From an uncultured Polyangiaceae bacterium (GTDB lineage: Bacteria > Myxococcota_A > Polyangia > Polyangiales > Houyiibacteriaceae): a stretch of 61,103 nucleotides of DNA. Both the position numbers and the translations under genes were made by a program. Location: assembly GCA_964195565.1 (NCBI GenBank), contig CAXMRN010000228.1, positions 1-61,103 on the forward strand, read 5' to 3'. The notes beneath the pieces were generated by a model. That model had not been told where the DNA came from, did no database searches, and was given only the letters and a program-made list of their open reading frames with translations. Of the stretch, positions 17,816 to 25,422 are shown piece by piece. How positions within the stretch are numbered: the first letter of the stretch is position 1; each line of letters opens with the position of its first letter.

Positions 17816-19345
17816 TCAAAACGCCAGCGTTCCGAAGCGTCCGTCTCTGGGCACATCGAAGCTCGATCCTCGACGGACCACCGCGACGGTGTCCGGCTGC
17901 CATAGCGGCAGGACGGGAAGGTCCCGGGCGAGGATGCTCTGGACGCGCTCGTAGGCTGCTCGCCGCTCGTTCTGATCGACTCGGGTTCTCCCCAGCTCGA
18001 ACAGCCGGTCGAGCTCGTCGTTCCGGTAGCGCCATCGGTTCGCGCCTTCGCTTTGCGGGCCAGGGATCCGCGAGGAATCGAAGAACCAGCTCAGCACGTG
18101 CGGCTCGATCACCTCGGGCACTTGCAAGAGCGTGATCTCGAAGCGGCCGCGGTTGAGGTCGGAGATCAGCGTCGCGGCCTCCGAGGGGCGGACGTCCACC
18201 TCGATGCCGACGTCGCCCAACATCGCCGCGATCGCGCGCGCGACCGATTGGCGAAAACGCTCGGAGGTGGTTCGAAGTGCGAGGCGGAGACGCGGTTCCG
18301 GGCCTGGTGGATCCGGGAACCCGGCGGCGTCGAGAAGCGAACGCGCTTCGTCGGGGTCGAAGCCCATCGGTGGCAATGCCTCGGTGTCGGCCCAGTGGTC
18401 GTGCGGGATCCAGCTGTCCGTGACCCGGGCAAGTCCGTCGTACTTCGCGCGAACCAGGAGGTCCCGGTCGATCGCGTGTCCAATGGCGCGCCGCACTCGA
18501 ACGTCGCCGAGCTTGGGCGAGGCGGTGTGGAACCCGAGATACATCGTCGAGATTCCCGGAGCACGTCGTGTCTCGAACCGGGGATCGTCCTCGAAGAGGG
18601 GAAGCAGGAGCGGAGGAATCGACGCAATTGCGAGGTCGCCCTGCCCTGCGAGCATCCGAAGTGCGCGCGTGTTGTCGTCTCGGATGACGACCAGTCGCAG
18701 GCTCGGGTACTTCGGCTCGCCGCGGTGCCAGTGAGGGTTCGCGCGCAGCTCGAGAACGCCTGGATCGCGCTTGACCAAGCGGTAGGGGCCGGCGCCGATT
18801 GGGAAGGGGTCTTCGGGCGTTGCGACGCGCCGAAATGCATCCTCGCTTCGGACGATCGGGAGCTCGAGGTCGGTCATGAAGGTGGCGTGGGGCTCGCGGA
18901 GGATGAACACGATCGTCCGCGGGTCGGACACCTGCATCTCCGCGATCCTTCGATAGGTGTGCGCGTAGCGGCTCCGGAGCTCCGGATCGACGACGCCCTC
19001 GAAGGTGGCGACCACATCGTGCGCATCGAGAGTGCTTCCGTCGCTGAAAAGCAAGCCCTCCCGGAGCCGAACCTCGAAACGCGTCGGGCTCGACGCCGTC
19101 ACCGACTCTGCGAGGTCCGGAACCACTTTGAGGGTCCGCGGATCGATCGTGACGAGCGAAGCAAAGAGAAGCCTCGAGACGCGCAGCCCGTACGGGTCGC
19201 CGACGAAGCGCGGGTCGAGCTGCTCTGCGTCCCGGGGGAGCATCACGACCAGGGCGTCCGAGTCGGGGGGCATGGGCTCCGTGCAGCCGACGCCGATCAC
19301 TAGGACCAGAAGCAGGGCGCTGCTAGGGTGCAGGCGATGGCGCAC
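17816..19345 (-). CDS. ABC transporter substrate-binding lipoprotein, family 5 (peptide/nickel)
   Basis: Lipobox VGVGC-like, LDPRF, VPDLAES, LREGLLFSDGSTLDAHDVVATF, GAGPY and RVRRAIGHAIDR. Start at GTG 19345 is inferred. Confidence 0.9.
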   Translation of the reverse strand: MRHRLHPSSALLLVLVIGVGCTEPMPPDSDALVVMLPRDAEQLDPRFVGDPYGLRVSRLLFASLVTIDPRTLKVVPDLAESVTASSPTRFEVRLREGLLFSDGSTLDAHDVVATFEGVVDPELRSRYAHTYRRIAEMQVSDPRTIVFILREPHATFMTDLELPIVRSEDAFRRVATPEDPFPIGAGPYRLVKRDPGVLELRANPHWHRGEPKYPSLRLVVIRDDNTRALRMLAGQGDLAIASIPPLLLPLFEDDPRFETRRAPGISTMYLGFHTASPKLGDVRVRRAIGHAIDRDLLVRAKYDGLARVTDSWIPHDHWADTEALPPMGFDPDEARSLLDAAGFPDPPGPEPRLRLALRTTSERFRQSVARAIAAMLGDVGIEVDVRPSEAATLISDLNRGRFEITLLQVPEVIEPHVLSWFFDSSRIPGPQSEGANRWRYRNDELDRLFELGRTRVDQNERRAAYERVQSILARDLPVLPLWQPDTVAVVRRGSSFDVPRDGRFGTLAF

Positions 19346-20761
19346 AGAGTGCTTCTTTGTTTCGCGATCGTTGGCCTGCTGGTCGTGAGCCCTGGTGCGC
19401 GCGCCAAGGGACCCGAGCCGGTCGCGCAAACCATCGCGAACCTCGTGCGGCAGGCCGGACTTGGCAATGGGCTCGGGATTCATGTCGTTCGCTTGCACGA
19501 TGGTGTCGAACTGTACCGCAATCGGCCCGAGCGCCCCCGAAATCCGGCGTCCAACCAGAAGCTTCTCACCTCGGCGGCCGCTCTTTGGCGACTGGGTCCT
19601 ACGTTCCGCGCCGCCACGAAAGTCGAAGGCGCCATCGAGAACGGCCGCGTAGCCACGTTGGTGGTGCGACCTTCCGGGGATCCAACGTTCGGATACGCCG
19701 GGTTGGCCGCGTTGGGCGAGGCCGTGCATCTGCGCGGGGTGGATACCGTCGATCGGATCGTCATCGATGACAGCTACTTCGACGATCAGATCCTCCCGCC
19801 TGCGTTCGAACAACAACCGAGGGAGGCAGCAGCCTTCCGTTCCGCGATCTCGGCGTTTGCGGTGAACCGGAACAGCTACGTCGTCCACGTGGGTCCCGGG
19901 CCAAAGGTGGACGATCCCGGACGCGTCCGGGTGCTCGCGGGCGCCTACGTGCGAGTCGAGAACCGCACCGTAACGACCGCGGGAGGCGCGCCAACGCCTC
20001 GGATCGACCACAAGTTGACCGACGACGGGCACCTCGCCGTTCGCGTCGACGGAGCGATTCCGAAGCAGGTCCGAACGTTGTACTACCGGCGCCGGGTACC
20101 GGACCCGAAAGCCTATGCGGCGAGCTTGTTGGTCCGGGCGTTGAAGAAAGCTGGAGTCGAGGGCGCGCTAGCTGTGGAGTACGGGGTGGCGCCGGAACGG
20201 CAGCCGTTGATCGCCGACATGCCCTCCCCGCCACTGAGCTCGATGCTCTATTCCGTGGGCAAGTGGAGCGACAACTTCGCGGCTGAGATGTTGCTGAAGA
20301 TCATGGGGGCGCAGGTGCAGCAGCCTGGCAGCTCCGCGCAAGGGGTCATCGCGGTACGAGAAGAGCTGATGAAGAGGGGCGTCGATACGGAGGGCCTGGT
20401 GATGGTCAACGGTTCGGGCTTGTTCGACGGAAACCAGGTCGCGCCACGGCACGTGACGCAGACTTTGATCGCCGCATATCGTGATCCCGCGATCCGAGCA
20501 GAGTACGTCGCCCACCTGGCCGTCGGTGGCTCCGACGGGACCTTGAAGTCTCGCCTCGAAGATCTTCCGCGCCCCAGGATGGTCCGGGCGAAAACCGGAA
20601 CTCTCAGAGATGTGATCGCGCTGTCCGGCTATGTGCTCGGAGAGCCAGACCGCTCGGTGGCGTTTAGTTTCTTGGCAAACGGGATCGCCGGCAAGCAGGG
20701 AGACGCGAAGAAACTGGCCGACAACATCGTGAGAGCACTCGCCAACTACGCTGTCCCGTGA
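19337..20761 (+). CDS. dacB: D-alanyl-D-alanine carboxypeptidase/endopeptidase (PBP4, peptidase S13)
   Basis: PASNQK (SxxK), SDN and AKTGTL triad motifs, GDP, GSGL and a signal peptide. Confidence 0.92.
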   Translation: MAHRVLLCFAIVGLLVVSPGARAKGPEPVAQTIANLVRQAGLGNGLGIHVVRLHDGVELYRNRPERPRNPASNQKLLTSAAALWRLGPTFRAATKVEGAIENGRVATLVVRPSGDPTFGYAGLAALGEAVHLRGVDTVDRIVIDDSYFDDQILPPAFEQQPREAAAFRSAISAFAVNRNSYVVHVGPGPKVDDPGRVRVLAGAYVRVENRTVTTAGGAPTPRIDHKLTDDGHLAVRVDGAIPKQVRTLYYRRRVPDPKAYAASLLVRALKKAGVEGALAVEYGVAPERQPLIADMPSPPLSSMLYSVGKWSDNFAAEMLLKIMGAQVQQPGSSAQGVIAVREELMKRGVDTEGLVMVNGSGLFDGNQVAPRHVTQTLIAAYRDPAIRAEYVAHLAVGGSDGTLKSRLEDLPRPRMVRAKTGTLRDVIALSGYVLGEPDRSVAFSFLANGIAGKQGDAKKLADNIVRALANYAVP

Positions 20762-22884
20762 AGATGATGCGCCCCGTTCTTTTCCTTTTTGTCTTTGCTG
20801 CCCTGGCCCCCACGGGTTGCGCGGGGAGCCAGAAACCCTCACCGGAAGGCCGAACTCTCATGCCGCCGCCCGTCGCTCCGATCCAACCGCACTCCATGAC
20901 CCTGCACGGCGACACACGCGTCGATGACTATTTCTGGCTTCGCGACAAGGGGACACCCGCCGTGACCGCCTACCTCGAGGAGGAGAACGCGTACGCCGAG
21001 GAGCGCATGGCGCCGACCGTCGGGCTCCAAAAGACGCTGTACGACGAAATCCTCGGACGCATTCAAGAGACTGACCAGAGCGCGCCATATCGCAAAGGCG
21101 CCTTCGAGTACTACCATCGCACTCAGGAAGGGAAGCAGTACCGGACCTATTGCCGGCGCCAGCCTGGCAATACGGAAACCGAACAGGTGCTTCTCGACAT
21201 GAACGCGCTCGCCGAAGGGCGCCCGTTCCTCGGGCTGGGCGCCTACGAGGTGTCCCCGGACGGACGCTATCTCGCGTTCTCCCTCGATGACACCGGCTTC
21301 CGCGACTACACACTTCAGATCAAAGACCTTCGATCGGGCGAGCTGCTTCCCGCACGAATGGCAAAGGTGAAGTCGGCCGCCTGGGCAAGCGACAGTCGCA
21401 CGCTGTTCTACACCGTGGACGACGACACCAAGCGGCCGCACCAGGTTCGACGGCACGAGCTCGGCTCGGGGGGCGAAGACGCCCTCGTGTACCGGGAGGA
21501 CGACGAGCGCTTCCGAGTCGCGGTATGGCGCTCGCGTAGTGGCGAGTACGTTTTTCGAGGCGCGTTCAGCCACACGACGACCGAGATCGGATTCGTGTCG
21601 GCCGCCGAACCCGCGGGCGACTGGCGGGTCGTCGCGGAGCGCAAGCAAGACCACGAATACATGGTCGCCCACCGCGGCCGTGACTTCTTGATCCGCACCA
21701 ACGATCGCGGCCGCAACTTCCGACTGGTCCGGACTCCGGTCGTCAGCCCCGGCCCCGCTTCCTGGAAGGAACTGGTGGCGCACCGCGACGCGGTGATGCT
21801 CGAAAGCTTAGATGTGTTCGAGGATTTCCACGTGCTGCTCGAGCGCGAAAAGGGGCTTCCACATCTTCGGATCTCGGCCTTTGGTGATGGCAGTTCCCAT
21901 CGAGTGGTGCTCGACGAGCCTGTGTACGCGCTGTACCCGGGCAACAACGAGGAGTTCACCGCGGGCGTTTTTCGCTTCGGGTACGAGTCGCTGACGACGC
22001 CCGACTCCGTGTTCGACTACGACGTGGCGTCAAAGCGTCGAAGCCTGGTGAAGCAGGTCGAGGTCCTGGGCGGGTACGACCCGTCCGACTACCAATCGGA
22101 GCGCGTCTGGGCGACGGCCGAAGACGGCACCCGAGTTCCAATTTCGGTGGTCTACAAGAAAGGCACACCGAGGGACGGCTCCGCTCCGATGCTGCTCGTG
22201 GGCTACGGGTCGTATGGCTACCCGTACCCAACGGGGTTCTCCCATGCGCGCGTGAGCCTGCTGGATCGCGGCATGATCTACGCCATCGGTCACATTCGTG
22301 GCGGAGGCGAGCTTGGGAAGCCGTGGCACGACGAAGGCCGAATGCAGAACAAGATGAACACCTTCACGGATTTCATCACGGTTGCCGAACACTTGATCGC
22401 GAACGGATACACCTCGAGTGAGCGTCTTGCCATCCAAGGAGGCAGCGCCGGTGGCTTGCTGATGGGCGCGGTCACCAACATGCGGCCCGACCTGTTCGGC
22501 GCGGTCGTATCGCTCGTCCCCTTCGTCGACGTCCTCAACACCATGCTCGACGACAACCTCCCGCTCACGGTGGGCGAATACGAGGAATGGGGAAACCCAA
22601 ACGAACGCGACGCCTACTTTCGCATCAAGGCGTACTGCCCATACACCAACATCGCCCCGCGCCCGTACCCAAGGATGCTAGTCCGCACATCCCTCAACGA
22701 CAGCCAAGTGATGTACTGGGAGCCCGCAAAATACGTCGCCAAGCTCCGTGCCCTAAAAACCAACGACGCCCCCCTACTCTTCAAGATCAACCTAGAAGCC
22801 GGCCACGGCGGAGCCTCCGGCCGCTACGACTACCTCAAAGAAACCTCCCTAGACTACGCCTTCATCCTCACCCACCTCCCATAA
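20758..22884 (+). CDS. ptrB: Oligopeptidase B (S9A), probably a lipoprotein
   Basis: DDYFWLRD, GGSAGG nucleophile, YEEWGNP, DSQV and AGHGGASGR; N-terminal hydrophobic segment ending PTGC. Confidence 0.93.
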   Translation: MKMMRPVLFLFVFAALAPTGCAGSQKPSPEGRTLMPPPVAPIQPHSMTLHGDTRVDDYFWLRDKGTPAVTAYLEEENAYAEERMAPTVGLQKTLYDEILGRIQETDQSAPYRKGAFEYYHRTQEGKQYRTYCRRQPGNTETEQVLLDMNALAEGRPFLGLGAYEVSPDGRYLAFSLDDTGFRDYTLQIKDLRSGELLPARMAKVKSAAWASDSRTLFYTVDDDTKRPHQVRRHELGSGGEDALVYREDDERFRVAVWRSRSGEYVFRGAFSHTTTEIGFVSAAEPAGDWRVVAERKQDHEYMVAHRGRDFLIRTNDRGRNFRLVRTPVVSPGPASWKELVAHRDAVMLESLDVFEDFHVLLEREKGLPHLRISAFGDGSSHRVVLDEPVYALYPGNNEEFTAGVFRFGYESLTTPDSVFDYDVASKRRSLVKQVEVLGGYDPSDYQSERVWATAEDGTRVPISVVYKKGTPRDGSAPMLLVGYGSYGYPYPTGFSHARVSLLDRGMIYAIGHIRGGGELGKPWHDEGRMQNKMNTFTDFITVAEHLIANGYTSSERLAIQGGSAGGLLMGAVTNMRPDLFGAVVSLVPFVDVLNTMLDDNLPLTVGEYEEWGNPNERDAYFRIKAYCPYTNIAPRPYPRMLVRTSLNDSQVMYWEPAKYVAKLRALKTNDAPLLFKINLEAGHGGASGRYDYLKETSLDYAFILTHLP

Positions 22885-22915
22885 AAGGGGACAGTCCCCT
22901 TTTTCAAAGGGTTAA
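22883..22915. repeat. Palindromic repeat, copy 1 (left arm truncated)
   Basis: AAAAGGGGAC-A-GTCCCCTTTT followed by TCAAAGGGTTAA; the right arm matches copy 2 with 2 mismatches. Confidence 0.9.
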
Positions 22916-22939
22916 TTCTGGAGGAGTTCGCCGGGGCTT

Positions 22940-23656
22940 CTAGCGGCGGTTCCGCCGGGAGCGCGGGGCCGGAACCGAGTTGCCGGTCTTGCACGCCAAC
23001 CAATGCAGGATGTCCAAGGATGAAAGGAGGCCAACGACCTTGCCGCCAGTGTCGACGACGGGGAGCCGGTGGATGCCTTCGTACGCCATTAGCGCGGAGG
23101 CCTTCGATAGCGACTGCTCCTCGTGCAGCGTGAATGTCATCGGGGTCATGATGTCCCGTACCAGACCGTCGCGCGTCACCCCGTGGCGAAGCAGGTCGGT
23201 CCTGGAGACAACCCCCACCGGCGCGCCCTCGGCATCGACCACGGGCGCGCCGCTATACCCGCCCTCCAGCAGGCAACTCGCCAACGCCGGCAAGCTCACG
23301 TCTTCGGCAACGCACTGGACGTTGAGGCTCATGATTCGTGAGACCGGCGTGGAATCGGCACGCTGGTGCAGCTTCCGTAGCAACCCCTCGCGCTCACCCG
23401 CTGCGAGAAACCGTCGAAGAGACTGTCGCGGGGTGGGCGCGCTGCTCTCGTAACAATGCAGGAGGCCGCTTTGCTCTTCGCGGTCGAAGGAAAGCCCGAT
23501 GTACTCCTCGCAGTCGACGCATTCGTTGACCCGCACGGTGCGCATCCGCCGAGGACAGTAGACGGTCGAATACGAGGAGGTCGTCCCATCCGCCGCCAGA
23601 GTCTGGCGAACGCGAATCTCGAGCTCGTAGTAAGGGGCCCTCGCAACCATCGGCAT
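22940..23656 (-). CDS. CBS-pair protein with Cys-rich N-terminal domain
   Basis: Tandem CBS domains (SGAPVVDAEGAPVGVVSRTDL; HRLPVVDTGGKVVGLLSSLDI) and YCPRR...CVDC...HC. Start uncertain (23698, 23656 or 23650). Confidence 0.85.
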   Translation of the reverse strand: MPMVARAPYYELEIRVRQTLAADGTTSSYSTVYCPRRMRTVRVNECVDCEEYIGLSFDREEQSGLLHCYESSAPTPRQSLRRFLAAGEREGLLRKLHQRADSTPVSRIMSLNVQCVAEDVSLPALASCLLEGGYSGAPVVDAEGAPVGVVSRTDLLRHGVTRDGLVRDIMTPMTFTLHEEQSLSKASALMAYEGIHRLPVVDTGGKVVGLLSSLDILHWLACKTGNSVPAPRSRRNRR

Positions 23657-23716
23657 CCCTGTGGAGAGAGTATGCTGAACGAGATTCGGTATCAACATCG
23701 GCCCCGGCGCCGCGAC

Positions 23717-23761
23717 TTAACCCTTCCAAAAAGGGGACTGTCCCCTTTTTGGAAGGGTTAA
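23717..23761. repeat. Perfect 45-bp palindrome, copy 2 (REP/MITE-like)
   Basis: TTAACCCTTCCAAAAAGGGGAC-T-GTCCCCTTTTTGGAAGGGTTAA, with 22-bp perfect arms. Confidence 0.95.
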
Positions 23762-23766
23762 ATTGG

Positions 23767-23797
23767 AAACGCCGGTGAGGGGGGCTCACCGGCGTTT
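23767..23797 (-). terminator. Hairpin terminator after the sigma factor gene
   Basis: AAACGCCGGTGAG-N5-CTCACCGGCGTTT, a 13-bp stem 17 nt after the stop; U-tract is short. Confidence 0.7.
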
Positions 23798-23814
23798 GGG
23801 GGTGTGGGTTGGGG

Positions 23815-25224
23815 TTACTCTTTGATTTGGCGACGAATCTTGCCAAGGGCTTGTTCTTGGAGTTGGCGGATTCGTTCGCGCGATAGGTTGTACTTGTCGC
23901 CGATTTCCTTGAGGGTGAGCTCGTCCTCGTCGTCGAGGCCGAAGCGCCATCGGAGGATGCGGGCCTCCATCGGGGTCAGCGTGTCGAGGAGCCTGCGCAC
24001 CTCGTCGCTCCACTTGCGGGAGACGAGCTGCTCGTAGGGGGTCGGCACGTTTTCCTCTTCGAGGAAGTCGATGAACTTGCGGCCGTCCTCATCGTTGACC
24101 GGACGGTCGAGAGAGAACGGGGTTTCGGCCCAGTAGCCCTTGATCTTCTCGAGCTTCTCGGCGGCGATGCCGGTCTCCTTCTCGAGCTCTTCGGGCGTCG
24201 GCTCCATGCCGGTCCGAGTCGCGATGGCCTGCGTTGCGCGCGCCACCCGGTTGTACGTGTCGAGCATGTGAACCGGGATACGAACCGCGCGGCCCTTGTC
24301 GGCAAGAGCTCGGCTGATCGCGTGGCGAATCCACCACGAAGCGTAGGTGCTGAAGCGGTAACCACGGTTGTGGTCGAATCGCTCGACGGCCTTCATGAGA
24401 CCGATGTTGCCCTCTTGGATGAGGTCGATGAGTGGCAGCCGGCCGCGGTTGTAACGGCGGGCAATCGACACCACGAGACGCAGGTTGGCGGCGACGAATC
24501 GGTTCTTCGCTCGCTGCTGCCCATCTTGCGCGCCGCGCACGTGTTGCAGGTACTTCTTGAACGTGGGGGTCACGCGGACGTGATCACCGACGATGTCGCG
24601 CTCGTCCGCGAAGTCACCGGCGAGGCGGTGCACCGCGCGGTCCGACTCCTGGACGAAGAGACGGTCGCTGTCGAGCTCGCGCATCTTGGTCGAGAGCTGG
24701 AGACAAAGGTCATTCCAACGCGTCTCCTGTCGCTTGCCGAGCTTCTCGGCCTTCGCGCTCTTACAGAGCTTGCGAAGCGAAGCGATTTCCGGAAGCGGTT
24801 CTTCCTTGACGCGCGCCTCGATGACGGCGGCCACGCTCTCGAAGCACGAGGGGTAGCTGAGCAGAGCCTCCCAGTAGGCGATTTCGAGCCGCTCGACTTG
24901 CTTAGCGGCCTCGATCTCTTCCTGGGGGGTGAGCACGCGATGACCGATCATCTCTCGGAAGTACCGAGTGAGGGTCGAATCTCCGGCGCCTTGCCGCTCG
25001 AACTCCTTGAGAGCCTTTTCGCTCTCGACGCGAGCCTTTTCGAGCTGCTCCTTGCTGGGCTCGACCGAGGGGGCGGCCGGAGCCACGCCTGCCTTGGCCT
25101 CGGTGGGCTTTTGAACCTCGGCCTCAGCCTTCGGCTCCGTTTGCTTGGATGCCTTGGCCCGAACCTGGCTCTTCTTCCCAGACCGTCCTGTCGCCGCTGT
25201 TCTTGTTACTGCCTGTCTTGCCAT
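23815..25224 (-). CDS. RpoD-like (group 2-type) sigma70 factor
   Basis: Region 1.2 ([11 protein letters not shown]...LTPQEE), [41 protein letters not shown] and TLKEIG...SRERIRQ. No acidic region 1.1. Start MARQ with GAGG SD. Confidence 0.93.
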
Positions 25225-25422
25225 TTTGCCTCTCGCCTTCCGGTGGCGCCCCGCGATGTGTGGCACCCCGATTACTGGCTGAACACTCGAAACCGCCCGA
25301 CTCTTCCACCGGGCATGAACCAATCGTCGTGGCCCAACAGAGATGCACGCACCGTGCCGGAATGTGGTCCGCTGCGGAATCGCGCTCTCGAACCAGATGG
25401 CTTTGTCGTTGTGGTAACAAGG

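Follow-up and report, generated by a model that had tools for sequence, protein, structure and literature searches.

In an uncultured Polyangiaceae bacterium, genes that adjoin a short mobile palindrome are depleted of G and T at their third codon positions on the DNA strand that reads 5'→3' towards the palindrome (the approaching strand). The stretch of DNA analysed here, referred to as the window, comprises 61,103 nt (positions 1 to 61,103 of contig CAXMRN010000228.1 in assembly GCA_964195565.1) and contains two copies of this palindrome, which, to judge from its sequence, is a repetitive extragenic palindromic (REP) element of a REP/RAYT system, RAYT denoting a REP-associated tyrosine transposase of the HUH type. 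The outer edge of the REP unit serves as the anchor of the depletion, which appears in mirror image on the two strands and decays outward in the manner of a tract-length distribution.

The genome under study (G000) consists of 243 contigs, amounting to 3.36 Mb with a G+C content of 63.5% and a completeness of 88.8%. Other G-numbered genomes, including G017 and G018, are relatives in the same genus, and C-numbers denote contigs of G000. All gene-based counts rest on a purpose-built dicodon dynamic-programming caller, which recovers the Pfam-supported genes around the window, including those at the 17816-20761 overlap. REP copies in G000 were counted by a pattern allowing up to 3 substitutions, with the reversed genome as a control; 118 palindrome copies with A and T tracts are present in G000 and 0 in the reversed genome. 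For the skew counts the strict set of REP family 1 was used. The 97 genes that are followed by a REP have an A+C content of 0.80 at the third positions of their last 50 codons, compared with 0.55 in 2066 other genes (Mann-Whitney p=1.4e-38, all positions). Gene ends without the repeat are almost never skewed to a similar extent: an A+C content of at least 0.68 is reached in 10 of the 2066, about half of which lie beside the palindrome itself or beside a second repeat family described below. Scored as G+T at four-fold degenerate sites of the approaching strand, the skew depends on the distance from the REP as follows:

15-100 nt: 0.16 in genes ending at a REP, 0.40 in genes starting at a REP
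100-200 nt: 0.24 in genes ending at a REP, 0.43 in genes starting at a REP
200-300 nt: 0.34 in genes ending at a REP, 0.48 in genes starting at a REP
300-450 nt: 0.43 in genes ending at a REP, 0.52 in genes starting at a REP
450-600 nt: 0.46 in genes ending at a REP, 0.54 in genes starting at a REP
Background: 0.466 for gene ends, 0.534 for gene starts

The decay is smooth, and the background level is regained by ~450 nt. The association also holds in the reverse direction. Among 129 regions of extreme skew, defined by an absolute 150-nt keto skew of at least 0.36, 70 adjoin an element in the expected polarity (C/A-rich on the left, G/T-rich on the right) and 2 in the opposite polarity, while 55 are without an element and 2 lie at a contig edge; the share expected by chance is ~2.7%. 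A first-pass annotation of the window had proposed a local, polar effect centred on the palindrome, and this description is borne out on the scale of the genome. Third-position composition, examined against distance and orientation over the 118 copies, shows a skew that decays outward, keeps its polarity and is mirrored at gene starts; it is present around copies outside the window, and no equal skew is found at gene ends that lack the palindrome.

Extreme-skew regions away from REPs consist in part of tandem repeats, as in C121:6790-7075, C162:13102-13253 and C190:3829-4097 (with CCGCGAACCGCAAA-like, GACGAAGAAGCGCAC and GCGATCC units). In the window, the segment 40830-41026 is G/T-rich (150-nt keto skew of at least 0.36) with no repeat element adjoining.

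The two REP copies of the window are located between a peptidase gene and a sigma factor gene, which form a convergent pair that is kept across the genus. The features of this region are:

20758..22884, plus strand: oligopeptidase B-type S9 peptidase gene (Pfam Peptidase_S9_N, 5.2e-103; Peptidase_S9, 1.4e-62)
22585..22884, plus strand: G/T-depleted 3' zone of the peptidase gene, i.e. its last 100 codons (codon counts, five orthologs)
22883..22915, no strand: REP copy 1, consisting of an A-run, the core GGGGACAGTCCCC, a T-run and, on the right side only, the tail CAAAGGGTTAA
22940..23698, minus strand: CBS-domain gene between the two REP copies (Pfam CBS)
23717..23761, no strand: REP copy 2, a two-sided perfect 45-nt palindrome, TTAACCCTTCCAAAAAGGGGACTGTCCCCTTTTTGGAAGGGTTAA (from the sequence)
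23767..23797, minus strand: a further hairpin, GC-rich and distinct from the REPs, AAACGCCGGTGAG...CTCACCGGCGTTT, situated between the sigma gene and REP copy 2 (from the sequence)
23798..23814, minus strand: non-coding tract CCCCAACCCACACCCCC, composed of C and A only, directly 3' of the sigma stop (from the sequence)
23815..23892, minus strand: stop codon and last 25 sense codons of the sigma gene, with a weak and short skew (codon counts, orthologs)
23815..25323, minus strand: sigma-70 family gene (Pfam Sigma70 r1_2, r2, r3 and r4)

The 13-nt cores of the two copies are GGGGACAGTCCCC at 22887-22899 and GGGGACTGTCCCC at 23733-23745 (2 matches, against a shuffle mean of 0.14). The TAA stop of the peptidase gene (22882-22884) overlaps the A-run of REP copy 1. 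On the other side, the sigma stop is followed by CCCCAACCCACACCCCC, the hairpin and the second palindrome, in this order; the hairpin looks like a putative terminator of the sigma gene itself.

In the peptidase gene, the last 28 codons all have C or A as their third base, and only 3 of the last 48 carry G or T there, as the first-pass annotation had stated; on recounting, the unbroken terminal run of C/A-ending codons is even longer, comprising 33 codons. Over the last 100 codons 15 end in G or T, compared with 44% in the first 600. Leucine is encoded in 22678-22851 by CTA (5 times) and CTC (4 times) and never by CTG, in agreement with the earlier count of CTA and CTG, whereas the rest of the gene contains 18 CTG and no CTA codons. 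Among 2810 called genes, 10 have a terminal C/A run of at least 28 codons; a palindrome copy is located within 120 nt of 8 of them. In the sigma gene, the described switch to CTA, CAA, GAA, CGA and AAA codons is likewise reproduced: the 3' end employs A-ending codons for Gln, Glu, Lys, Arg and Leu, and 6 of the last 25 codons (stop counted) end in G or T, compared with 46% further up. The enclosed CBS gene had been described as little skewed. This is correct for its 3' end, which is directed towards the TTAA-tail side of copy 1 and shows no skew (21 of the last 50 codons end in G or T), but the gene is not altogether neutral: 34 of its first 50 codons end in G or T, a mild mirror-image skew beside palindrome 2. 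The 150-nt keto skew reaches -0.37 at 22735 and +0.39 at 23780, with genomic 0.1% and 99.9% quantiles of -0.35 and +0.35.

A comparison with orthologs reveals that the skew accompanies the palindrome. The oligopeptidase B genes of five relatives (G005, G013, G002, G017 and G011) have no palindrome after the stop codon, and their third positions show an ordinary mixture of G and C. The sigma gene differs from its 11 orthologs in only the last ~25 codons (third positions: G>A 5, G>C 1), where the amino acids are identical; the peptidase protein is conserved as well, in line with the first-pass statement that its protein motifs are intact. REP flanks in G018 are skewed too, with an A+C content of 0.67 falling to 0.50 (70 arms, an arm being the flank on one side of a REP); those in G017 are weaker (20 arms), and the low-copy genomes (18 arms) show almost no skew beyond 50 nt. 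Contigs from four metagenome runs, belonging to four studies, reproduce the skewed end of the peptidase gene (run X1 with 0 differences over 22179-22886), and the consensus of the loose ends at other REP copies is C/A-rich before the REP and G-rich behind it. The agreement between independent metagenome contigs excludes an assembly artefact. Joints in the metagenome contigs that skip 22902-23717 provide no evidence of a deletion, their sides being only 21-34 letters long and most likely derived from other REP copies.

Some further observations concern the surroundings of the two copies. The species is represented in marine-sediment metagenomes from 12 studies. In the runs X1, X7, X10 and X11 the summed contig depth over REP bins in 22876-24143 is up to ~20-fold above that of the neighbouring bins, and the REP is therefore abundant in those marine-sediment communities. 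Among 7 genomes compared by tblastn, the CBS gene is present between the peptidase and sigma genes in G000 and G009 only, and it may have arrived, or may be kept, as a REP-bounded insert. In G009 (locus L003, G009:C4) the peptidase frame lacks the usual stop and continues for more than 50 extra codons, antisense into the CBS region; in G013 the peptidase and sigma genes are 24 nt apart.

The base changes do not support the spectrum proposed at first. The first-pass annotation had assumed G>A on the approaching strand; the third positions of the last 80 peptidase codons, compared with the orthologs, display 17 G>C, 7 G>A and 2 T>C changes, with G kept at 7 positions. In the genome as a whole, the G that is lost from four-fold sites of the approaching strand near a REP is replaced mainly by C (0.65 vs 0.44), and an increase of A is confined to the ~40 codons nearest to the repeat. 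For the same reasons, the C-enriched approaching strand and the excess of G>C over G>A, simple deamination is not supported as a cause. The A:C and G:T ratios remain near background while A+C is favoured over G+T, and the skew can therefore be described as a reweighting of A+C against G+T that is superimposed on normal codon preference.

The palindromes share the consensus TTAACCCTTnnAAAAAGGGGACWGTCCCCTTTTTnnAAGGGTTAA and are mostly located directly after stop codons or between genes. The stop codon is TAA in 77 of 110 (70%) REP-followed genes, as compared to 304 of 2362 (13%) controls; TAA often overlaps the A-tract of the REP, and the element may therefore supply or shape the stop. Exact 19-mers of the palindrome number 61 in G000, 113 in G018, 17 in G017 and 1-6 in each of six other genomes of the genus, while none is found in nine further genus members or in 12 genomes from 12 other genera of the order. 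Head-to-head doublets with the TTAA tails inside occur at C234:1936-1990, C89:224-290, C7:33296/33337 and C52:5166/5207. In G018 (locus L070), a gene with a Pfam Y1_Tnp match (61.4 bits, over the cut-off) lies between two inverted copies, GGGGACAGTCCCC and GGGGACTGTCCCC, with the TTAA tails pointing inward. The orthologous position in G000 (C232:14541) contains a solo palindrome.

On either side of the single RAYT homologue of G000 (C44:8953-9279) lies a second repeat family, as GGGGACACTCTCC...AAAGATCGCAGCG and as its inverse. The sole NCBIfam match of the G018 and G000 RAYT products is NF047646 (REP_Tyr_transpos), with 69.3 and 61.1 bits, respectively, both under the cut-off of 80. The proteins contain HFH / HVH and Y..RNP / Y.DLNP, which we take to be the HUH motif and the catalytic tyrosine; a search by sequence found no relative with a solved structure. 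The unit of the second family at C44:8586-9430 (locus L080, 1134-1977) ends in the inverted repeats GGGGACACTCTCC / GGAGAGTGTCCCC and contains an internal hairpin, AAGATCGCAGCG / CGCTGCGATCTT; other copies are located at C47:48735/48884, C63:80332, C86:35074 and C151:26906. GGGGAC is common to the termini of this family and the small palindrome, and the same kind of skew is present in its outer flanks (0.665, n=22, p=1.6e-4).

In general organization the elements resemble the REP/REPIN-RAYT systems of Pseudomonas and Enterobacteria, which also comprise ~100 copies of a short palindromic extragenic repeat, present as singlets and inverted doublets (Bertels and Rainey, PMC3116915). Further points of resemblance are the patchy, lineage-specific copy number (exact copies range from 0 to 113 across 19 genomes of the genus), a Y1/HUH transposase gene enclosed between two copies in inverted orientation (here in G018) and the fact that about half of the syntenic sites are common to species, 10 of 20 syntenic REP loci of G018 and G017 also holding a REP in G000. 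As far as can be judged from sequence, the elements fit a REP/REPIN-RAYT system, with the caveats that the cognate RAYT is missing from the assembly and that the NCBIfam scores are below threshold. Unlike in the known systems, the REP has A5/T5 tracts and a TTAA-ended tail, and the flanks are recoded over up to ~100 codons. The E. coli rayT locus (n=1), also unlike the REPs described here, is without skew. Judged by eye, a minus-then-plus skew is present at 7 of 12 and at 9 of 30 RAYT loci, some of them from other genera, the latter including families f29, f6 and f16 of the class; three RAYT loci have the opposite sign on at least one side, and many multi-copy RAYT homologues that resemble insertion sequences show no skew pattern.

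The genes that start at a REP are crucial for the interpretation of the skew. Their distribution (44 arms) is bimodal, ~15-17 of them being strongly skewed, with G/T-rich third positions over 40-80 codons. When 12 of the 17 most skewed genes were compared with Pfam, domains were identified in the called orientation in 12 of 12, beginning at or before residue 45 in 10. This mirror skew at gene starts implies that the composition of the sense mRNA is not the whole cause; together with the polarity of the REPs, the unskewed other hairpins, the pattern at RAYT loci and the failure to find Rho, it argues that this composition is not the primary cause either.

The sense transcript would be the target if the REPs were the main bidirectional terminators in a genus without Rho and if G/U-poor, unstructured RNA were favoured over the last ~100 codons. 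Several properties would agree with such selection. The REP is built like an intrinsic terminator for both directions, with a GC-rich stem-loop, a 5' A-tract and a 3' U-tract (AAAAAGGGGACWGTCCCCTTTTT), and other terminator-like hairpins are present after 2145 genes in only 18 cases. The effect is ~3 times stronger in genes running towards the REP and absent between divergent genes (n=6), and TAA stops prevail at REPs. Moreover, a plain reweighting of A+C against G+T with unchanged A:C is what a selection coefficient would give, and a log-odds shift of ~1.5 is within the range of strong codon selection. Against this, genes starting at a REP would have G/U-rich mRNA 5' ends, in all 12 Pfam-confirmed cases, and neither the RAYT gene, whose 3' end runs into a REP, nor the 3' end of the CBS gene at copy 1 is skewed. 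The 18 non-REP hairpins followed by T-runs, unlike the REPs, are unskewed as well (0.543 vs 0.545; a small number, and the looser REP pattern used in this hairpin comparison took in 295 genes, which dilutes that class). The skewed zone is translated sequence of 300-400 nt, which to our knowledge exceeds any known terminator determinant, and C-rich RNA upstream could base-pair with the GGGG arm and thereby counteract the hairpin. Transcript selection is thus regarded as an unlikely primary cause, although it possibly covers part of the effect in genes that end at a REP. The REPs may be the main terminators of this lineage, which seems to lack Rho and to have few ordinary terminators.

The first-pass annotation had offered the selection of Rho-loading sites as its alternative. 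Rho utilization (rut) sites are C-rich, G-poor RNA, and the gene ends at REPs resemble them in having such sequence upstream of a presumed termination point, from where Rho might enter. However, Pfam Rho_RNA_bind (PF07497) was detected in 0 of 6 genomes of the genus (G000, G008, G012, G015, G017 and G018, the five others besides G000 being 96-100% complete), and in 5 of 5 genus genomes, three of them 97-100% complete, the best scores for NCBIfam TIGR00767 (rho) did not go beyond 25-30 bits, where the cut-off is 509. Applied to 14 control genomes, the Pfam search exceeds its cut-off in 9 and the TIGR00767 search in 8. In addition, T is depleted too, which Rho does not require, the zone lies within a translated reading frame, and the skew is mirrored at gene 5' ends. 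These features distinguish the flanks from rut sites and, the absence of Rho apart, from intrinsic terminators, whose A-tract/hairpin/T-tract build the REP otherwise shares. The Rho-loading alternative is close to refuted and can be given almost no weight.

The position of the skew relative to the REP unit provides additional information. At the REPs that flank the RAYT genes of G018 and G000, the inner sides, which carry the TTAA tail, are unskewed and the outer sides are skewed; the same applies to the 3' end of the RAYT gene, which runs into a REP without becoming skewed. Singlets are more skewed on the bare hairpin side than on the TTAA side, both at gene ends (0.598 vs 0.566, p=0.007) and at gene starts (0.576 vs 0.527, p=0.015). 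This link with the outer hairpin side, and the partial independence of gene strand, would also be expected if selection acted on single-stranded DNA for REP/RAYT function, a 5' flank without G and T allowing the hairpin to form and to be recognised; every canonical base pair needs G or T, and a strand of A and C only cannot fold on itself. Such selection leaves unaccounted for the G/T-rich 3' flank of the same strand, the 300-nt range and the threefold effect of transcription direction, and the arms are not mutually complementary beyond their composition. We consider it very improbable.

The interpretation preferred here is a REP-anchored, outward-directed and strand-asymmetric bias at the DNA level, strengthened by transcription towards the REP; its probability is judged to fall only a little short of even. 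We infer that the cause is mutational rather than selective, and the molecular steps below are proposed in the same sense. The bias would extend outward over ~200-400 nt on each side of a REP, the approaching strand losing G and T and gaining C and, close in, A, while its departing complement would become G/T-rich. Repeated DNA synthesis, or exposure of single strands, would proceed from the REP outward on the departing strand. It might start with a nick introduced by RAYT at the outer foot of the hairpin, which would prime repair synthesis; HUH nucleases leave a 3'-OH and remain bound to the 5' end. Alternatively, a low-fidelity polymerase might fill a patch or take over after the replicative polymerase has stalled at the hairpin. 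G/T-biased errors or damage would then be left on the departing strand, G·T mispairs being the commonest polymerase error. Among the remaining bases codon preference would set the A:C ratio, and the strong pressure for G+C at third positions would convert a G>A drive into net G>C, with A accumulating only where the drive is strongest. Since the effect is ~3 times stronger in genes ending at a REP, transcription into the REP probably makes the event more frequent, or else G/U-rich sequence at the 5' ends of coding regions is selected against. A more specific proposal is that REPs, with or without the RAYT nuclease, are recurrent sites of strand-specific nicking or polymerase switching that launch short, low-fidelity outward synthesis and act as local polar mutators, imprinting an origin-like skew on their surroundings and synonymously altering up to 100 codons of the adjoining genes; it is put forward tentatively, as plausible rather than probable.

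A number of observations weigh against a DNA-level bias of this kind. The log-odds shift amounts to ~-1.5 where a gene ends at a REP and to ~-0.5 where one starts, and the six REPs between divergent genes show no skew at all; given such a strong effect of gene orientation, a purely REP-centred process needs an added assumption. The dominance of G>C means that direct polymerase or deamination spectra fit only through the two-step equilibrium argument given above. The skews of the left and right arm at the same REP do not correlate (rho -0.08, n=94), with no sign of an age effect, and the skew bears no relation to the number of mismatches in the REP core (rho -0.06). The skew is strongest in G000, but the cognate, G018-type RAYT is not found there: apart from one weak match, tblastn yields no more than the RAYT of the second family, which is 34% identical. 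The absence of the cognate RAYT is unproven because the assembly is 88.8% complete. The lack of such a pattern at the E. coli rayT locus, a single case, indicates that the effect is not general to RAYTs. Neither a raised nor a lowered substitution rate near REPs is evident: strain contigs are more than 99.5% identical and offer too few differences, none of those listed falling in 22585-22884 or 23798-23892, and the four-fold divergence of G000 from G018 and G017 is near saturation, with an excess identity of 0.144 near and 0.160 far from REPs (difference -0.016, confidence interval -0.07 to 0.04). Finally, at 10 loci that contain a REP in G018 or G017 but not in G000, the G000 arms are equally skewed (0.552 vs 0.560, 20 arms).

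The skew at these 10 REP-less loci might have been left behind by REPs that have since disappeared, or it might have preceded the repeats. In the latter case REPs would insert or survive where composition already switches, for example because the transposase needs unstructured single-stranded DNA. The clean switch at a REP-less convergent junction of C94 near 11300, the lack of correlation between the arms and the independence of the skew from REP decay would be compatible with this order of events. Gene ends without the repeat are nevertheless rarely skewed, as noted above (10 of 2066), and the five REP-less oligopeptidase B orthologs are unskewed. The REP loci of G018 that correspond to C156 and C238 are unskewed in both genomes, as young insertions would be, and likely remnants of REPs are visible at several of the supposedly REP-less junctions of G000 (C16, C53). 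We know of no process that would make such composition switches beforehand, and a prior skew is considered improbable.

At the level of single junctions, likely REP remnants at sites occupied by a REP in G018 are C16:1190-1215 (TTAACCCTTCGAAAGGG, without the hairpin core) and C53:4730-4765 (AAAAAGG...GTCCC). The convergent junction C94:11100-11500 shows a clean switch from C/A to G/T without a REP of either family, and G017 has a REP there. A clean switch without a REP is also seen at the convergent junction C197:12103-12454, with a small inverted repeat, CCCCCTC...GAGGGGG, at the switch.

Several more specific mechanisms were considered and rejected. An extended palindrome or template switching is rejected in that the arms of the same REP are no more complementary than those of different REPs (0.356 vs 0.357 at 20-120 nt, 94 REPs). 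A model of fork collapse or replication direction is not borne out: origin-near and origin-far arms at gene ends show values of 0.592 and 0.597 (p=0.97), the direction being derived from weak local GC skew on short contigs. Insertion age is rejected as the main variable in view of the uncorrelated arms and the absence of a relation to core mismatches. Transcription-coupled repair, or damage of the non-template strand, would give genes starting at a REP a skew of the wrong sign, and an incoming transcript acting on the downstream arm only predicts more downstream skew in tandem pairs, contrary to the data. Repeated nicking at a cruciform, as suggested in the first-pass annotation, is weakened by the six unskewed palindromes between divergent genes, where negative supercoiling should favour cruciforms.

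Two known kinds of strand asymmetry can be compared with the REP flanks. At replication origins the leading strand is G/T-rich, and likewise, on the strand departing from a REP, G exceeds C and, at closer range, T exceeds A, the switch coinciding exactly with the REP. Unlike at origins, the asymmetry extends over 300 nt rather than megabases, is of far larger amplitude, involves ~100 switches per genome, all of them located at mobile repeats, and does not depend on the inferred direction of chromosome replication. Kataegis-type deamination produces strand-coordinated mutation clusters at resected breaks. The REP flanks share with these clusters the mirror-image, strand-coordinated changes and the tract-like decay, but the sign is opposite, C being enriched and not depleted on the approaching strand, and the pattern reflects an evolutionary equilibrium rather than a single event.

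The system type, REP/RAYT, is already known; the footprint in its flanks is new relative to the searchable literature. A compositional skew of the flanks is not mentioned in the relevant passages of Bertels and Rainey 2011 (PMC3116915) and of 10.1101/2021.07.10.451892, and no description of it was found in the accessible portions of the open full-text literature, subscription journals being outside the scope of the search. According to the latter work, studies that connect the function of REPINs with the RAYT nuclease are almost entirely lacking (10.1101/2021.07.10.451892).

The findings show that the codon usage of essential genes can be overridden by a mobile repeat next to them, and that extreme local codon bias need not reflect expression level or horizontal transfer. 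The role of REPs as terminators, if it holds, would bear on how transcription ends in Rho-less bacteria. With ~100 natural replicates per genome, the REP flanks offer a means to separate local mutation from compositional selection. REP/RAYT systems are widespread and have long been vertically inherited without an agreed function, and the footprint would be the first genomic trace of the events in which they engage in vivo. If the interpretation is true, an element-anchored mutational footprint would be new for bacteria and could possibly serve as a readout of RAYT activity.

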